Shown piece after piece: positions 1 to 64,000 of a DNA stretch of 64,000 bases. The notes under the pieces are model-generated. The model was not told the DNA's origin and did no database searches. It saw nothing but the letters and a program-made list of their open reading frames with translations. Numbering within the stretch: position 1 is the stretch's first letter; each line of letters starts with the position of its first letter. The stretch is from Thermoplasmatales archaeon SW_10_69_26 (GTDB lineage: Archaea; Thermoplasmatota; SW-10-69-26): the NCBI GenBank assembly GCA_003009755.1, contig PXUB01000003.1:1-64000 (forward strand), read 5' to 3'. The position numbers were made by a program, and so were the translations under genes.

Positions 1-304
1 CGCTGATGCGATCCCCCCTGGAGAAGTGCGGCCGCCTTGAGGGCCGAGTTCCGCGATGGCTGCCTCTGCCCTCAGATTCGGACGGCCTCGGCAGTGTCCG
101 CGGTCGGCCGTCCTCTCCCGGCGGCCGCACGTGCCGCTGATGCGATCCCCCCTGGAGAAGTGCGGCCGCCTTGAGGGCCGAGTTCCGCGATGGCTGCCTC
201 TGCCCTCAGATCCGGACGGCCTCAGCAGTGTCCGCGGTCGGCCGTCCTCTCCCGGCGGCCGCACGTGCTGCTGATGCGATTCTCCCTGGAGAAGTGCGGC
301 CGCC
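1..304. repeat. 134-bp tandem repeat (2 full units plus a partial one, probably continuing beyond the window start) downstream of tRNA-Gly
   Basis: Units start at 1, 135 and 269 and differ by only a few substitutions. Each carries GTGCGGCCGCC (tRNA 3' end) and an inverted copy, TCCCGGCGGCCGCAC. Confidence 0.95.
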
Positions 305-365
305 GGGATTTGAACCCGGGCTAAGAGCTTGGAAGGCTCTGGTCCTACCCCTAGACCACGGCCGC
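295..365 (-). tRNA. tRNA-Gly (anticodon TCC), no intron, CCA not encoded
   Basis: Minus strand reads GCGGCCG...AGAGC-CTTCCAA-GCTCT...GGTTCAAATCC...CGGCCGC-A. It forms a full 71-nt cloverleaf. Confidence 0.97.
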
Positions 366-461: not shown

Positions 462-825
462 GTCGGACGGGTCGCCGTCTGAGGCCGCCGTCTGACGGAG
501 GGCCGTATGACGATCGTGTCTGACGCACCGTGTCTGACGCGATCGTCTGACGCTGCCGATGCCCGTCCGAGGGGGCCTGTGAGGGCCCGAACGGCCTGAT
601 CCCCCGGCCTCACCGTATGACGGGGCCGTATGACGCCTCCGTCTGACGCGACCGTATGACACCGGCGTCATACGCGTATGACGAGCGGCATACGCCCGCC
701 GGTGACGCCTGAAGATGTCGCCTGTCGGGTCGATGGAGCCTCTCGGCGGATGACGCCTGGCCGGGGGGACGCCCATGTCTGACGGTGATGACGCCCCTGT
801 CTGACGCCGTCGTCGCCGTCTGAGG
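462..825. repeat. Array of short direct repeats GT(C/A)TGAC(G/A), many at 13-15 bp spacing
   Basis: Exact copies at 490, 505, 518, 532, 545, 615, 628, 641, 654, 676, 777 and 799, one inverted copy at 666, and variants at 462, 477, 701, 749, 787 and 818. Confidence 0.92.
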
Positions 826-930
826 GCGCTGTCGGGCGGCCGCTCGAGCCGACGGCGACGCGGAACCGTCCGTCTGTCAAGGGAGACGGGCTACGCCGTC
901 ACGGCTCGAGGTGGCCGAGCCGACCGGAAC

Positions 931-982
931 GGAACATATATATCGGGGGCCCAAGTGTTCTATTGTCAGACGATGTCTGACA
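931..982 (+). promoter_or_regulatory. TATA-like box (TATATAT, 937-943) and palindromic operator TGTCAGAC-GAT-GTCTGACA (964-982) upstream of RHH-ftsZ2
   Basis: An AT-rich box in GC-rich DNA. The perfect 8-3-8 inverted repeat uses the same motif as the upstream array and lies near the expected transcription start. Confidence 0.7.
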
Positions 983-1098
983 GCTGATGTCGGTCGGCAT
1001 CCAAGGGCCGACGACCCGCGCCGTGTTGGTGGGGGTCCGACGCCGGACGGGTGCCGGACCGACAGCTGTTGGGCGTCGTCGGGCACACGAGGGTTTGC

Positions 1099-1365
1099 AT
1101 GGGAACGGACACGAAGCGGATCACGGTGCGAGCGCCCGTCCGGGACGTCGAGTTCATGGACGCGCTCGTCGAGGCGGGGGAGTACCCCAGCCGAACCGCC
1201 GTGGTCCGTCGTGCGATCCGCGAGTTCCTCCGGGACAAAGGTCCCGAACTCGAGGAAGCCGTGGAGAGCCAGCAGTCCCTGACCCAAGCGCTGCAACAGA
1301 TGGAGCAGATGCAAGAACAGATCGAGGCTCAAAAAGAGCTCCTCGAGAAGTTCGTGCAACAGTAG
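1099..1365 (+). CDS. cdrS: CdrS-like ribbon-helix-helix protein with a C-terminal Q/E-rich coiled-coil extension
   Basis: RITVRAP..DVEFMDALVEAGEYPSRTAVVRRAIREFL is a typical RHH. It lies directly upstream of ftsZ2, like the euryarchaeal cdrS-ftsZ2 arrangement. Confidence 0.8.
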   Translation: MGTDTKRITVRAPVRDVEFMDALVEAGEYPSRTAVVRRAIREFLRDKGPELEEAVESQQSLTQALQQMEQMQEQIEAQKELLEKFVQQ

Positions 1366-1514
1366 TGTGTCGAGGCCAGCCGGGCCTGAATCAACACGGA
1401 TGGGATGCAATCGTTCGGGGTCGGGCCGCTCCCGCCGGGGTCTCCCGGCGGGGTGGCCAACTCCCGGATGCACGCGCACAGCACGCTCAACCGCTGACGA
1501 CAAGCCGCTAGGAG

Positions 1515-2660
1515 ATGGATGGGATGGAAAGCATCATTCAAAGCGCGATCGAGCACGCCGGGGAAGAAGAGGACGAAGGGATGCCGCAGGATCTGGGCGG
1601 GGGTGAGGCCTCCGATTTGACCGGAACACCGCGCATCGTCATCGTCGGGTGCGGTGGTGCCGGTAACAACACGATCAACCGGCTGCACCAGATCGGTGTC
1701 CGAGGCGCCGAGACGGTCGCCATCAACACCGACAAGCAGCACCTCGACATGATCGAGGCCGACAAGAAGCTCCTGATCGGGAAGTCCGTCACCCGCGGCC
1801 TCGGCGCCGGCGGGTACCCCGACGTCGCCGAGCGATGCGCCGAGATGGCTCAAGGCCAGCTCGAATCGCTGCTCGAAGGCGCCGACCTGGTGTTCATCAC
1901 CGCCGGCATGGGCGGCGGCACCGGCACCGGCACCTCGCCCGTCGTGGCCGAGGTCGCCAAGGAGCAAGGCGCCATCGTGATCGGGATGGTCTCCACCCCG
2001 TTCAACGTCGAGCGCGCCCGCATCAAGAAGGGCGAAGAGGGCCTCGAGCGCCTTCGCAAGAAGGCCGACACCGTCATCGTCCTCGACAACAACCGCCTGC
2101 TCGACTACGTGCCCAACCTCCCCATCGACCAGGCGTTCTCGGTGATGGACCAGCTCATCTCCGAGACCGTCAAGGGCTTGTCCGAGACGATCACGCAACC
2201 GTCACTGATCAACCTCGACTACGCCGACGTGAAGACGATCATGGGCTGCGGCGGCGTCGCCGTGATGCTCTACGGCGAGTCCCAGGCCACGGACTCGAAC
2301 AAGGTCATCAAGGAGGCGCTCAACCACCCGCTGCTGGACGTGGACTACAAGGGCGCCACTGGCGCGCTCGTCCACATGACGGGCGGTCCCGACCTCACGC
2401 TCCGCTCCAGCGAGAACATCGCCCAGGGGCTCACCATGGAGCTCGAGTCCAACGCGAACGTCATCTGGGGCGCCCGCATCGACCCGGCCTACGAGGGTCG
2501 CGTCCGCGTCATGGCGATCATGACCGGCGTCGAATCGGCCAACGTGCTCGGCAGCGACTCCCCGCAGGGCGCCAGCCGCCAGGCGACGCCCACGCAGGAG
2601 CCCGAGTCCGTCGAGGAGTCGACCACCCAGGACGGCCAGGAGATCCACTGGATCAAGTAA
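1515..2660 (+). CDS. ftsZ: Cell division protein FtsZ (FtsZ2 type)
   Basis: GCGGAGNN, the tubulin signature GMGGGTGTG, and [11 protein letters not shown] and [10 protein letters not shown], which are typical of archaeal FtsZ2. Confidence 0.97.
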
Positions 2661-59441: not shown

Positions 59442-59783
59442 CTAGACGGAGGCGCCGTCCTCGATCGGGAACAGGGGACAGTCGGGTCCGCACTGGAAGG
59501 GTCCGTTGTTCAGCTCGAACTCGCAGTCGCCCTCGTGCTCGAGCAGGGTGTTCGTGTCGGCCAGGTCCTGGCAGGCCTGCTCGTCGTGGACGATCACGGA
59601 GGGGCAGCCGTCCGAGCCGTCGACGGTGACGTAGCGGCCCTCCTCGTGGAAGAGGTAGACCTGCGTGCAGTTGTCGGGCTGCTTGCCGGGGATCTCGGTC
59701 TCCGCGCCGGCGAGGGGGGCGGTCAGCGCGGAAGCCAGCAGGCCAAGCGTCGCGATCGCGAGGATGGTGGTTCGTAGGTTCAC
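59442..59783 (-). CDS. Small secreted Cys-rich protein (6 Cys)
   Basis: GTG start and leader NLRTTILAIATLGLLASALTAPLAGA. Confidence 0.75.
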   Translation of the reverse strand: MNLRTTILAIATLGLLASALTAPLAGAETEIPGKQPDNCTQVYLFHEEGRYVTVDGSDGCPSVIVHDEQACQDLADTNTLLEHEGDCEFELNNGPFQCGPDCPLFPIEDGASV

Positions 59784-59966
59784 GGGAACACCGCCCACGC
59801 CAAATCCAGGCCAAGGCAAATCTCTTGCGGTGCCGACGCAGCGAGGATCGCTCTCCCGCGGAACGTTCCCACGATGGGTCGAAGCCTCGGACGCGGGATC
59901 GAGGCTAGCCGTCAGGGGTGAAGAGGGAGAGGGAGCGGACCGGTCGCGTCCGGCCCGCCGGGCCGA

Positions 59967-60269
59967 TCACTTCTCGATCGGGGTCGAGGAGGCCTCGGAG
60001 TCGATCACCGGGCAGGTACAAACGGGGTTGCAGGGGATGGTGGTGACGAGCTGGCAGGGGTCCGTCTCGATCGCGCAGGCGATGAACATCGGCGTCGCGT
60101 CTGTGCACGTCTCGTTGACCTCGTCCTCGATCGCCTCGCGGCAGTCGTCGGTGTCGTCGTGGACGTTCTGGGGCTCGCAGGTCGCCTCGCTGGCGCTCGC
60201 GGTGGCGGTGAACGCGGTCGCGAAGAGGCCGAGCGCGGCGACGGCCAGCAGCGTGGTTCGAAGCTTCAC
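59967..60269 (-). CDS. Small secreted Cys-rich protein (8 Cys)
   Basis: Leader KLRTTLLAVAALGLFATAFTATASA. Confidence 0.8.
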   Translation of the reverse strand: MKLRTTLLAVAALGLFATAFTATASASEATCEPQNVHDDTDDCREAIEDEVNETCTDATPMFIACAIETDPCQLVTTIPCNPVCTCPVIDSEASSTPIEK

Positions 60270-60333
60270 GTCGATCACTCGGCGGGCCAGGCCGGCTGGG
60301 CCCGATAGTCGTTGCGGATCCCGCTCGGTGCGC

Positions 60334-60953: not shown

Positions 60954-61223
60954 TTACAGGAACCGGGGGTGCGGGTCGCAGGTGCAGGTGCAGAACAGGC
61001 GAAACTCCTCGCAGGGGTGGAACTCCGGCGAGCAGTCCACGCTGTATTTGAGGACGGTCTCCTCGCAGACGAGGGCCCGAACGTCGTCCTCGTCGGGCAG
61101 GTCTTCCTCGTCGGGCAGGTTGTCCTCGTCGGGGAGGTCGTGGTTGGCGCTGGCGGAGGGGGCAAACGCGGTCGCAAACAGGCCTACGGCGGCGAAGGCG
61201 AGAACGATCGTTCGGGGGTTCAT
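60954..61223 (-). CDS. Small secreted Cys-rich protein (6 Cys, three LPDE repeats)
   Basis: Leader MNPRTIVLAFAAVGLFATAFAPSASA. Confidence 0.8.
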   Translation of the reverse strand: MNPRTIVLAFAAVGLFATAFAPSASANHDLPDEDNLPDEEDLPDEDDVRALVCEETVLKYSVDCSPEFHPCEEFRLFCTCTCDPHPRFL

Positions 61224-61310: not shown

Positions 61311-61574
61311 TCACTGCTCGAGGACCTGCTCGAGCAGCTCGCGCTGGGTCTCGATCTGCTCCTGCATCTGCTCCATCTGCTGGAGCGCCTGCGTGAGCCG
61401 CTGTTGGCTCTCGACCGCCTCCTCGAGCTCGGGTCCCGTGTCCTTCAGGAACTCGCGGATCGCCCGACGCACGACGGCGGTCCGGCTGGGGTACTCGCCG
61501 GCCTCGACCAGCGCGTCCATGAACTCCACGTCCCGGACCGGGATCCGGGTCGTGATCCGCTGGGTGTCGGGCAT
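61311..61574 (-). CDS. Second copy of the CdrS-like RHH-coiled-coil protein
   Basis: 73 of 85 aligned residues are identical to 1099-1365 (hand count). Confidence 0.9.
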   Translation of the reverse strand: MPDTQRITTRIPVRDVEFMDALVEAGEYPSRTAVVRRAIREFLKDTGPELEEAVESQQRLTQALQQMEQMQEQIETQRELLEQVLEQ

Positions 61575-61959: not shown

Positions 61960-62328
61960 TCAGTCCTGGCCGGGCTTGGGCGGGCAGTGGCTTTGCGGGC
62001 AGGGCTCGAAGGGACCGTGGTCCTCGCAGAACGTGAGCGCGACCCCGAACTCCCCGGTGTCGCAGGCGTTCTGCGGATCGTCGAGGACGCCGTTCACGTA
62101 CTCGCAGTACGTGGATGGGACGTGGATCCCGTCGGGGTCGAGCTCGCAGGGCACGTCGGCCGGGGGATCCTGGGTCTGGTCGTCGACGTTGCACTGGATG
62201 CCGTTGGGTTCACCGTGCGGGTACACGGCGCAATCGACCGGGCCCGGCTGGGCGGCCACGGCGGGAGCGAGCCCAGTGGCGAACAGACCGGTAGCCGCGA
62301 TCGCGAGAAGCGTGGTCTCGAGATCCAT
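61960..62328 (-). CDS. Small secreted Cys-rich protein (8 Cys)
   Basis: Leader MDLETTLLAIAATGLFATGLAPAVAA. Confidence 0.8.
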   Translation of the reverse strand: MDLETTLLAIAATGLFATGLAPAVAAQPGPVDCAVYPHGEPNGIQCNVDDQTQDPPADVPCELDPDGIHVPSTYCEYVNGVLDDPQNACDTGEFGVALTFCEDHGPFEPCPQSHCPPKPGQD

Positions 62329-62531
62329 GAGATACCATCGCGAGCAGTCCCGCTGACCGGCAAAAGCGTTACGCATCACCGGCACCACGGTGCCGAGCGG
62401 GGCGTCTCGTGGACCGTCCACGGCCCCTTCGATGCCGTTGGGTTCACCGTCGGCAGCCATCCCAGTCGACAGGGCCATGCTGGTCGGCCTCGGCGGGAGC
62501 GAGCCCGGTGACGCGGCATCGAGCCCGAGGA

Positions 62532-62559
62532 TTGACAACATATCGCCGTCTCATGTTAA
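62532..62559. promoter_or_regulatory. Putative NikR-type operator TTGACA-N16-TGTTAA
   Basis: An imperfect 6-16-6 inverted repeat directly upstream of the nikR-like start. A related AT-rich inverted repeat lies at 62951-62983, before the ZnuA-like gene. Confidence 0.5.
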
Positions 62560-62562
62560 GAC

Positions 62563-62949
62563 GTGCGCGTCATCAGCGTCTCCCTGCCCGAGGACACCGT
62601 GGACGAGCTCGACCGGCGAGCCGACCAAGACGGATACAGCGGCCGCAGCGAGCTCGTGCGCGCGGCACTGGGGCCCTTCCTCGATCAGGCTCGAGGCGAG
62701 GAGGCACGCGAGGGACCGGCCACGGCCACGCTGGTCCTCGCCTACGACGAGGAGATCAGCGATCTCGTGAATCGGCGCCGCCACGATCACGCCGAACCGA
62801 TCACGACCATGGTCCACGGGCACACCGATGATCATCGGTGCCTGGAGGTCCTCGTCCTCGAGGGGGGAAGCGACGAGATCCGGTCGTTGGCGAACGACCT
62901 GCGGGGCCGCCCGGGGATGAACCAGGTCGAGCTGACGTGGCTCGACTGA
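62563..62949 (+). CDS. NikR-family metal-responsive regulator
   Basis: RHH ISVSLP..GYSGRSELVR plus an ACT-like domain with HGH...CLEV. Confidence 0.88.
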   Translation: MRVISVSLPEDTVDELDRRADQDGYSGRSELVRAALGPFLDQARGEEAREGPATATLVLAYDEEISDLVNRRRHDHAEPITTMVHGHTDDHRCLEVLVLEGGSDEIRSLANDLRGRPGMNQVELTWLD

Positions 62950-63020
62950 CTGTTGATAGTAAAACAGGCCTTCACAGTTAACAGGAGGAAACTAATAACG
63001 GGAGGGGGGTGGCAGGCGTG

Positions 63021-64000
63021 ATGACGCGCCGATTGCTCCCCCTGCTCGCCGCGACGCTGCTCGCCACCGCCGGTTGCGTCGGCCCCCTGACCGACACCGG
63101 CGATAGCCCCGATGTCCTCGTCACCCACTACCCCATCGAGTTCCTCGCCTCCGAGATCGCCGGCGACGATGTCGACGTCGACGCCTTCGTCGAGGGGGGC
63201 CAGCCCCACGACTTCAACCCAGGCTTCGAGGACAGGTCCGCCCTCGAGGACGCGAGCCTGGTCGTGTACCAGGGCGCCGGCTTCTCGCCCGGCGTCGAGG
63301 GGATGCTGGCCAGCGCCGGCGAGGACGGGCCGCCCTCGCTTGCCCTCGTCGACACCGTCGACACGATCGTTCACGAGGACGAGCACCGTCACGAGGCTGA
63401 GGAAAACCATTCCAACCACGAGGACCGCGACGGTGGCGACCAGGACGAGCACCACGAGAGCGAGCACGAGCGCGAGCACGACGAGCACGCGGAGGGTCGC
63501 GAGGACCCGCACACCTGGCTGGACCCCGTGCGCATGACCCAGCACGCCGAGGCGATCCGCGACGCGATGCAGGAGGCCTTCCCCGAGCACGAGGAGGCCT
63601 TCGCGAACCGGACCGCCGACCTCGTCGACGACCTCGAGGCCCTCCACGGGGACTTCGAGGCCGGCCTCGCGACCTGCGAGGTCCGGACCGCCGTCGTCAA
63701 CCACAACGCTTTCGCTTACCTCGGAGACCGCTATAACATCACCTTCGAGGCCGCCCACGGGCTCTCGCCCGACACGGAGCCCTCGGCCGAGACGATCGAC
63801 CGCCTCGCGGAGATCGTCGACCACCACAACCTCACGACCGTGTTCTTCGAGGAGTTCGTCAGCCCGGAGGTCGTCGAGACGATCGCCGACGAGACCGGCG
63901 CCGACACCGAGGTCCTCTCGCCCCTCGCGGCGCTCACCGACGAGCAGCGCGCCGACGGCGAGACCTACCTCACCCGCATGCGAGCCAATCTCCACGCGCT
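63021..64000 (+). CDS. ZnuA-like metal ABC transporter substrate-binding lipoprotein (runs off the window; absent from the ORF track)
   Basis: MTRR leader with lipobox TAGC, QPHDFNP, a His/Glu-rich loop, DPHTWLDP and HNAFAYL. Confidence 0.92.
   Translation, partial: MTRRLLPLLAATLLATAGCVGPLTDTGDSPDVLVTHYPIEFLASEIAGDDVDVDAFVEGGQPHDFNPGFEDRSALEDASLVVYQGAGFSPGVEGMLASAGEDGPPSLALVDTVDTIVHEDEHRHEAEENHSNHEDRDGGDQDEHHESEHEREHDEHAEGREDPHTWLDPVRMTQHAEAIRDAMQEAFPEHEEAFANRTADLVDDLEALHGDFEAGLATCEVRTAVVNHNAFAYLGDRYNITFEAAHGLSPDTEPSAETIDRLAEIVDHHNLTTVFFEEFVSPEVVETIADETGADTEVLSPLAALTDEQRADGETYLTRMRANLHA

Follow-up and report, generated by a model that had tools for sequence, protein, structure and literature searches.

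We analysed a 64,000-base stretch of archaeal DNA (the window), which forms the first 64 kb of contig C3 of an assembly of 49 contigs (2,816,557 bases, 69% G+C), and focused on an array of short boxes, GTMTGACR, lying upstream of a gene for a ribbon-helix-helix (RHH) protein and the cell-division gene ftsZ2. The array is real and unique within its genome, and judging from the sequence comparisons the locus is probably a self-regulated cdrS-like/ftsZ2 operon whose operator has been expanded into an upstream array of auxiliary sites. The host is an uncultured salt-crust archaeon. Throughout its phylum the box appears to be a conserved control site of the division operon, usually in two copies, and the extra copies found here most likely serve to tune self-regulation and not to move DNA.

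Exact matches to GTMTGACR numbered 15 in the window (13 on the plus strand and 2 on the minus strand), all within 490-982, in agreement with a first-pass annotation of the same DNA. Shuffled versions of the whole window contained 8.68 ± 2.87 matches, and therefore only about 0.07 boxes would be expected per 500 bp. Distal cluster A (477-552, plus strand) comprises six direct boxes with spacings of 13, 15, 13, 14 and 13, in which a one-mismatch box (GTCTGAGG) at 477 precedes exact boxes at 490, 505, 518, 532 and 545. Distal cluster B (615-693, plus strand) contains exact boxes at 615, 628, 641 and 654 (spacings 13, 13 and 13), followed by 666 on the minus strand, 676 on the plus strand and a one-mismatch box at 686 on the minus strand; Tandem Repeats Finder detected a period of 13 at 612-660, and a perfect 18-bp palindrome CGTCATACGCGTATGACG spans 666-683. 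Distal cluster C (748-825, plus strand) holds exact boxes at 777 and 799 and one-mismatch boxes at 748 and 818. The last two exact boxes, 964 (minus strand) and 975, form the 8-3-8 palindrome TGTCAGAC-GAT-GTCTGACA, which spans 964-982 and lies 21 bp past an ATATATAT stretch (936-943). The phased spacings and both palindromes thus stood as first described. Information was confined to the box and one flanking base per side, (C/T)GTMTGAC(G/A): box positions 0-7 were invariant or two-state in all 15 boxes, and the spacers carried 0.05-0.3 bits, near background. The core GTCWGAC is nearly palindromic, and the orientation of a GTCTGAC box therefore depends on its central base alone.

The clustering claimed for the locus also held at the scale of the genome, in which GTMTGACR matched 58 times, 15 of them in this locus, and a scan of the whole 2.8 Mb found no second 600-bp stretch with at least three matches. 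When exact 7-base cores (GTCWGAC, GTATGAC and GTCATAC) were counted, 101 were present in the genome, and all of the pairs spaced 8-16 bp apart (10/10) fell in this locus; allowing one mismatch in one partner gained merely four weak pairs outside it. No box pairs were found at ftsZ1. Genome-wide avoidance of the box was considered and rejected, since the four box 8-mers outside the locus ranked at the 10th-17th percentile among 8-mers of equal composition, which is low yet unremarkable. Separately, isolated inverted repeats of GTCATAC/GTATGA-like halves with 13-14 bp spacing were seen on contig C31 near 12152 and on contig C19 near 65324, and these are the only box-like pairs outside the locus.

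The core promoter of the RHH-ftsZ2 operon is predicted at 926-943 (plus strand), where a purine-rich stretch CGGAACGGAAC, possibly a B recognition element (BRE), precedes the TATA element ATATATAT at 936-943. The inverted pair at 964-982 (plus strand) is the putative proximal operator; its start lies 29 bp downstream from that of the TATA 8-mer, and its box centres are 10 bp apart over the predicted transcription start. By sequence, it has the arrangement of an Arc/CopG-type operator, namely a pair of sites one helical turn apart at the start site of the RHH protein's own gene. RNA contigs of two studies start at 983 and 986 and continue through the RHH gene, and another (1297-1537) reaches past the end of the RHH gene and into the beginning of ftsZ. 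The contigs show transcription of the operon from about position 983, and the two coincident starts give a weak hint of a transcription start in or just after the proximal pair. No RNA contig was found over 381-947 in runs X5 and X6, and this absence of cover was not taken as silence.

The array was also followed into natural populations by comparing the contigs of four public halite-metagenome runs with positions 300-2700. One DNA run was identical to the window over the compared region and may be the source of it, and a second DNA run, from a different study, yielded a variant contig covering 300-1601. This variant differed by 15 substitutions and 14 deleted bases at 366-461, by 9 substitutions and 2 single-base insertions at 462-900, and by 1 substitution at 901-1601. 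All 13 distal boxes were present in it, only 1 of the 11 changes at 462-900 fell within a box, and that change, 644 T>C at the central base (giving GTCCGAC), was the only one affecting an exact box. The variant was identical to the window over 462-563 (cluster A), and no repeat unit had been gained or lost. These results show that the extra boxes are real and kept against a diverged background.

The gene at 1099-1365 (plus strand) encodes an 88-amino-acid RHH protein (Pfam RHH_8 and RHH_1), and the gene at 1515-2660 (plus strand) encodes an ftsZ2-type FtsZ of 381 amino acids (TIGR00065). The RHH protein passed RHH_8 (PF17723) with 34.6 bits over residues 4-83 (gathering threshold 25.4), and FtsZ passed the TIGR00065 equivalog with 402.4 bits (threshold 295.2), with domain scores of 154.5 bits for PF00091 and 100.4 bits for PF12327. 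The order of an RHH gene with a helical tail followed by ftsZ2, as initially annotated, was therefore borne out. An AlphaFold2 monomer of the RHH protein (predicted local distance difference test, pLDDT, 89.5) consists of a ribbon segment, a helix at 14-25 and an uninterrupted helix at 32-87 with a Q/E-rich tail; the ribbon reads K-R-I-T-V-R-A. The nearest solved folds were RHH domains of ParD antitoxins, NikR and CopG, none of which matches the tail, and searches of a protein atlas and of solved structures returned generic RHH neighbours only. Residues R7, T9 and R11 of the ribbon were invariant in 24/24 orthologues, while the rest of the protein averaged 43% column identity. The helical tail is a family trait, being present also in relatives with just two boxes. 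Against the CdrS equivalog NF058555, built for Halobacteria, the protein scored 37.8 bits and failed the cut-off of 100; no better CdrS candidate was found genome-wide, the top NF058555 matches being the two paralogues at 41.5 and 38.2 bits. Judged by gene order and conservation (a small RHH gene directly before ftsZ2 on the same strand), the RHH protein is the positional counterpart of CdrS, and the suggestion of a cdrS-like RHH and ftsZ2 unit was likewise supported by gene order and by the relatives. A second FtsZ, 44% identical to this one, is encoded on contig C28, and FtsZ was 67-88% identical across 80 related loci. A complex prediction of FtsZ2 with two RHH copies scored 0.00, which weighs neither for nor against binding. 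The C-termini of the RHH proteins also carry clade-specific short motifs (GLGLF(D/E)(D/E)L in one clade and KLGL in another; L073, L075, L100 and L114 versus L077, L087, L093, L099, L108, L110 and L111), which could be docking peptides; the window protein ends in LLEKFVQQ.

The RHH protein was then searched against 41 relatives, with matches in 31/41 genomes, and 19 of the 30 loci fetched had the RHH gene followed by FtsZ2; an FtsZ2 query (one genome per species) kept 80 loci, and tblastn placed this RHH in 33 of them. The closest named records were Thermoplasmata and Thermoplasmatota metagenome-assembled genomes. Before counting, we removed duplicates (L003, L004, L007, L009, L010, L020 and L044), one locus whose upstream DNA was cut by a contig end (L041), and those in which the RHH-ftsZ2 pair was not re-found (L002, L008, L015, L021, L023-L025 and L027-L030). 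The final comparison set held 45 distinct RHH-ftsZ2 loci, this window included, and boxes were counted within 1.2 kb upstream. An exact GTCWGAC/GTATGAC core occurred at most 170 bp from the RHH start in 44/45 loci, and in 31 of these 44 it began 26-29 bp after an A+T-rich 8-mer, which makes it coincide with the predicted start of transcription. From there the next box was 10-11 bp away (direct or inverted) in 18 loci and 64-65 bp away in 14. The comparison shows phylum-wide conservation of the box, of its start-site position and of the ribbon residues.

Within the family of the window, an alignment of the intergenic regions of this genome (G000) and of G002 and G004 left nothing invariant except the TATA element, the proximal pair and a single distal box; the proximal palindrome was the sole long invariant intergenic block among the three genera. 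Being this sole long invariant block, with an equivalent in 44/45 loci, the palindrome after the TATA element appears to behave as an operator, as had been proposed. The layout in G004 is tRNA-Gly, five direct boxes (spacings 12, 19, 12 and 20), TATA, proximal pair and one leader box, and that in G002 is tRNA-Gly, one inverted distal pair, TATA and proximal pair. No box pair was found in G001, of the same family, but this carries no weight, as a contig end truncates ftsZ2 there and the assembly has a completeness of 88%. Five relatives had a genome background of 20-121 boxes per 2.0-4.5 Mb, and three of them had 3 (G010), 4 (G018) and 6 (G011) boxes at this locus. In the FtsZ2-seeded set, at least two cores were found within 2 kb before ftsZ2 in 29/32 RHH-bearing loci, compared to 0/47 loci without this RHH, of which 10/47 had one core.

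The number of boxes varied widely. Among the 45 loci, 5 had one box, 23 had two, 4 had three and 4 had four, and at the upper end two loci had five boxes, one had six, one had seven, three had eight, one had nine and one, the window, had 15. One or two boxes were thus present in 28/45 loci and five or more in only 9, and the other 44 loci ranged from 1 to 9 with a median of 2, making the window the extreme. The claim of extra upstream boxes held in part, in that the boxes are real and conserved in the variant contig. None of the other 44 loci has the phased 13-box array, which goes part of the way towards the refutation that the first-pass annotation had set for itself, namely absence of the array in relatives. 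Many boxes were found in L073 (9), L075, L050 and L039 (8 each), L114 (7) and L043 (6). The spacing is irregular in L073, L075, L114, L050 and L043, and the repeats of L073 include longer flanks, which suggests separate origins; as far as sequence comparison can tell, box number grew independently in several loci. A palindrome, cattgcaYgtggaActccaYgtgcaatg, is conserved about 100 bp before the TATA boxes of L073, L075, L100 and L114, in another Thermoplasmatota clade, where it sits between the distal boxes and the promoter; it is absent from the window and is probably the site of a second regulator.

The messenger RNA leader (969-1083, plus strand; about 115-130 nt) was predicted by folding to form one long hairpin (-80.5 kcal/mol, z -5.47), whose 5' arm takes in the second proximal operator box; positions 1035-1041 hold a degenerate box, GTCCGAC. 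Similar folds were predicted for the leaders of G002 (z -5.28) and G004 (z -5.59), though their sequences barely align, and z was at most -2.0 in 17 of the 20 leaders folded (the window, L042:1469-1605, L039:84-233 on the minus strand and 17 others). The boxes themselves raise fold scores because they are self-complementary, and the controls gave z -5.64 for cluster A, -1.43 for cluster B and -1.78 for the RHH-ftsZ spacer. Inner leaders without boxes still folded (z -3.15 for the window at 983-1068, and -4.00 and -4.44), which argues that the leader is structured and conserved, with the proximal operator within its 5' arm. In one clade the boxes are 64 bp apart, and there the second one sits at a hairpin's tip, with compensatory changes in the flanks at 8 of 12 predicted pairs among 20 sequences. 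Post-transcriptional control of cdrS-ftsZ2 has been proposed for haloarchaea in the accessible part of PMC8303175.

We favour a mechanism in which the boxes bind a regulator that serves this locus alone. The adjacent CdrS-like RHH_8 protein is the most likely candidate, and the 86%-identical paralogue described below might bind them too. Because the box is a small palindrome, it would suit one RHH dimer, so that each near-palindromic box (C)GTCWGAC(G) would receive one. When occupied, the inverted pair at 964-982 over the start would shut the RHH-ftsZ2 operon by classic archaeal repression, resulting in negative autoregulation. As auxiliary operators, the boxes at 477-825 (13 or more) would gather the regulator beside the promoter; dimers would touch one another along the 13-bp steps, loop back to the proximal pair via the long C-terminal helices, or both, and the outcome would be cooperative, switch-like occupancy of the start site. 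The RHH protein as binder, repression by binding, and action of the distal boxes in cis by cooperativity or looping are steps that we infer. With no other box pair in the genome, and none at ftsZ1, the regulator would have essentially one target, and the recurrent spacings of 10-11, 12-14 and 64-65 bp speak for contacts between bound proteins, plausibly via the long helix. In Halobacterium, the cdrS-ftsZ2 promoter is the only reproducible chromatin immunoprecipitation sequencing (ChIP-seq) site of the RHH protein CdrL, according to the accessible part of PMC7439475.

Several points weigh against this mechanism. The choice of the adjacent RHH protein as binder derives from sequence, and the distal boxes would be compatible with repression and activation alike. 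Steps of 13 bp place neighbouring sites about 85 degrees apart on the helix, and RHH tetramers usually bind on the same face. The co-occurrence of box and RHH is confounded by phylogeny, because the 47 loci without this RHH belong to Methanosarcinales and other non-Thermoplasmatota. Since the sequences on either side of the +64 box show hairpin-type covariation in the RNA, some transcript boxes may serve RNA structure and not protein binding. The 18 Haloferax CdrS ChIP-seq sites listed in the accessible part of PMC8406309 exclude its own promoter, and the Halobacterium promoter is bound by CdrL, with no such binding given for CdrS in the part of PMC7439475 that is accessible. By analogy with this haloarchaeal pattern, the binder could be another protein.

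A different binder in place of the adjacent RHH protein, either the paralogue alone or an unrelated CdrL-like factor, would draw on the same haloarchaeal observations, on CdrL occupying the Halobacterium cdrS-ftsZ2 promoter (PMC7439475, accessible part) and on the missing CdrS promoter in the Haloferax site list (PMC8406309, likewise). The paralogue, encoded at 61311-61574 (minus strand) and 86% identical to the RHH regulator, keeps the R-x-T-x-R ribbon face and an almost identical helical tail (RHH_8 32.8 bits), and it is a possible second binder of the array; it does not adjoin an ftsZ, and its own promoter is without boxes. Among the relatives searched, however, the paralogue was found in this genome and G001 (L002) only, whereas the box is phylum-wide, CdrL is reported to be confined to Halobacteria, and the invariant ribbon tracks the invariant box in 24/24 orthologues. 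We regard a different binder as unlikely.

Somewhat less probable still is a decoy or titration array, in which the distal boxes soak up RHH protein away from the promoter complex, so that ftsZ2 expression is set by the ratio of protein to chromosome and the array acts as a division timer or buffer. The 13 distal boxes against 2 proximal ones far exceed what a repressor needs, the spacing between boxes and promoter varies among multi-box loci, and the array is stable between two populations; the regulator seems to have no other genomic target, and its free level would then be set by a local sink. Two boxes suffice in most relatives, however, and the 64-65-bp spacing kept in 14 loci, together with distal pairs often 12-14 bp apart, points to contacts and not to independent sinks. 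Titration of the regulator by the array, as raised in the first-pass annotation, was neither supported nor excluded. To a bolder version, in which the 13 phased boxes are a ParR/omega-like platform coated by the RHH protein and its paralogue by way of the long helices, which either titrates against chromosome copies or holds the locus at FtsZ2 assemblies, we likewise give little credence, on a par with the simple sink. If true, such a platform would give plasmid segrosomes a counterpart on the chromosome that is linked to FtsZ, and under its titration version division would be timed by replication.

Neutral expansion, in which replication slippage multiplied a 13-bp unit holding an operator and left extra copies without a role, fits the short tandem units and the varying box number among relatives. 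It is improbable, given that information is concentrated in the box and not in the spacers, that unit number is equal in two populations despite a strongly diverged tRNA-proximal spacer, and that multi-box upstream regions recur in several other loci. Least probable, and hardly credible to us, is a centromere-like segrosome, in which RHH protein coats the phased boxes like ParR, omega or TubR and links a chromosomal site to FtsZ2 filaments: iterated short repeats by a promoter, an RHH protein extended at its C-terminus and, in the same operon, the gene of a cytomotive guanosine triphosphatase (GTPase) recall R1 parC, whose two sets of five iterons are each bound by ParR (PMC2241845, accessible part), but the GTPase is a conserved division FtsZ2 and not TubZ or ParM, the neighbours are chromosomal housekeeping genes, the tail is present at any box number, and the 28/45 loci with one or two boxes show that the RHH-FtsZ2 pair can do without the array. 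The centromere/adaptor/tubulin architecture that had headed the first-pass annotation thus found no support, the FtsZ being an ordinary paralogue, the tail a family trait and two boxes the state of most relatives.

Other identities of the array were also examined. Coding DNA was rejected, as the minus-strand open reading frames at 453-776, 668-880 and 395-613 had no Pfam hit above threshold and were therefore treated as spurious high-G+C frames; each box carries a plus-strand TGA. An Rfam scan returned tRNA as the only known RNA family, and a C/D-box small RNA, sR30 (746-806), was rejected at 16.8 bits against a gathering threshold of 38 (E 0.45) with misfitting box spacings. A replication origin was rejected as well: the two Cdc6/Orc1 genes lie on contigs C43 and C19, an origin recognition box (ORB)-like pattern gave scattered matches only, and the element in other loci that had prompted the idea is a palindrome, more likely another factor's site. 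A bacterial promoter and terminator scan found none, and such a scan is ill-suited to archaea.

Upstream of the array, the tRNA-Gly(TCC) gene at 294-365 (minus strand; ARAGORN, Rfam tRNA 66.5 bits) is transcribed away from it, probably from a TATA element near 392-399 on the minus strand. This tRNA gene is also upstream in the family relatives G002 and G004, and not so in other families. A 134-bp tandem repeat occupies window positions 1-304 (2.3 copies, 97% identical), and every unit closes with the final 11 bases of the tRNA-Gly gene's 3' end and the 24 bases downstream of it; contig C3 begins inside this repeat, which might represent either an assembly edge or the duplication of a segment resembling an attachment site. 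Downstream, an aldehyde dehydrogenase gene comes next after ftsZ, and the genes neighbouring the locus are chromosomal housekeeping genes. At the far end of the window, the RHH paralogue precedes genes for small, Cys-rich acidic proteins with signal peptides (60954-61223, 59967-60278 and 59442-59819, with another at 61960-62541). A true NikR (RHH_1 plus NikR_C; 62563-62949) lies beside a ZnuA-type protein for metal binding with abundant His, Asp and Glu; the two together occupy 62563-63998, and this pair is unrelated to the boxes.

The cdrS-ftsZ2 unit is already known, and to our knowledge CdrS-type regulators are the only transcriptional controllers of archaeal FtsZ-based division, their DNA sites having come only from ChIP-seq in two haloarchaea. 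In the literature searched, we found no description of a Thermoplasmatota operator box, of array growth or of a structured leader. The window and its 44 relatives offer a concrete candidate operator, (C)GTCWGAC(G), at the transcription start for Thermoplasmatota, a phylum with few cultured members. Operator arrays together with a structured leader suggest that FtsZ2 dosage is controlled at several layers, and the natural series of 2, 5, 8 and 15 boxes is suited to asking what extra operators do in a self-regulated switch.

Compared with plasmid partition cassettes, the locus shares repeats by a promoter, a small DNA-binding protein and a filament nucleoside triphosphatase (NTPase) in one operon, as described for ParMRC of R1 in the accessible part of PMC2241845. 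It differs from them in being chromosomal, in having FtsZ2 and not ParM/TubZ as its NTPase, in a repeat number that is unconserved (median 2), and in that no contact between adaptor and NTPase is known here. With neither a dedicated ParM/TubZ NTPase nor an iterated centromere kept wherever RHH-ftsZ2 occurs, it falls outside that class. Omega/delta of pSM19035 and TubZRC of pBtoxis have iterated centromeres, with repeats of 7-13 bp, that are bound by RHH or other adaptors, and partition adaptor proteins also autoregulate. The aCcr1 protein of Sulfolobales resembles the window protein as a small RHH transcription factor controlling archaeal cell division (PMC9976878, PMC9976892; accessible parts), whereas its phylum is different, its division is of the ESCRT type and no array is described in those parts, the comparison being by description and not by sequence.

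The cdrS-ftsZ2 unit of Halobacteria is alike in its small RHH gene directly before ftsZ2 (PMC7439475, PMC8406309; accessible parts), and the single clear target promoter of CdrL in the same sources parallels the regulator proposed here. For the cdrS promoter, neither PMC7439475 nor PMC8406309 describes a box motif or an array in its accessible text, and the motif of Haloferax CdrS is presented in a figure only. In the window, RNA contigs likewise cover the RHH gene, one bridges the RHH-ftsZ junction, and two FtsZ paralogues are present. Unlike CdrS, the RHH protein here has 88 amino acids with a 40-amino-acid helical tail, belongs to RHH_8 and stays at 37.8 bits against the CdrS cut-off of 100; a tRNA-Gly lies upstream, with no CdrL-type partner there, CdrL being an RHH protein with a zinc ribbon. 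Arc, MetJ, CopG and NikR are cooperative RHH repressors acting on tandem or inverted sites, and E. coli NikR reads GTATGA half-sites. Unlike these proteins, the window RHH lacks a ligand- or toxin-binding domain and has a single long helix only, and it faces as many as 15 sites, which follow one another at 13-bp steps in the distal clusters. What it shares with them is an R-x-T-type ribbon, a short half-palindrome and an operator of two sites about one helical turn apart.

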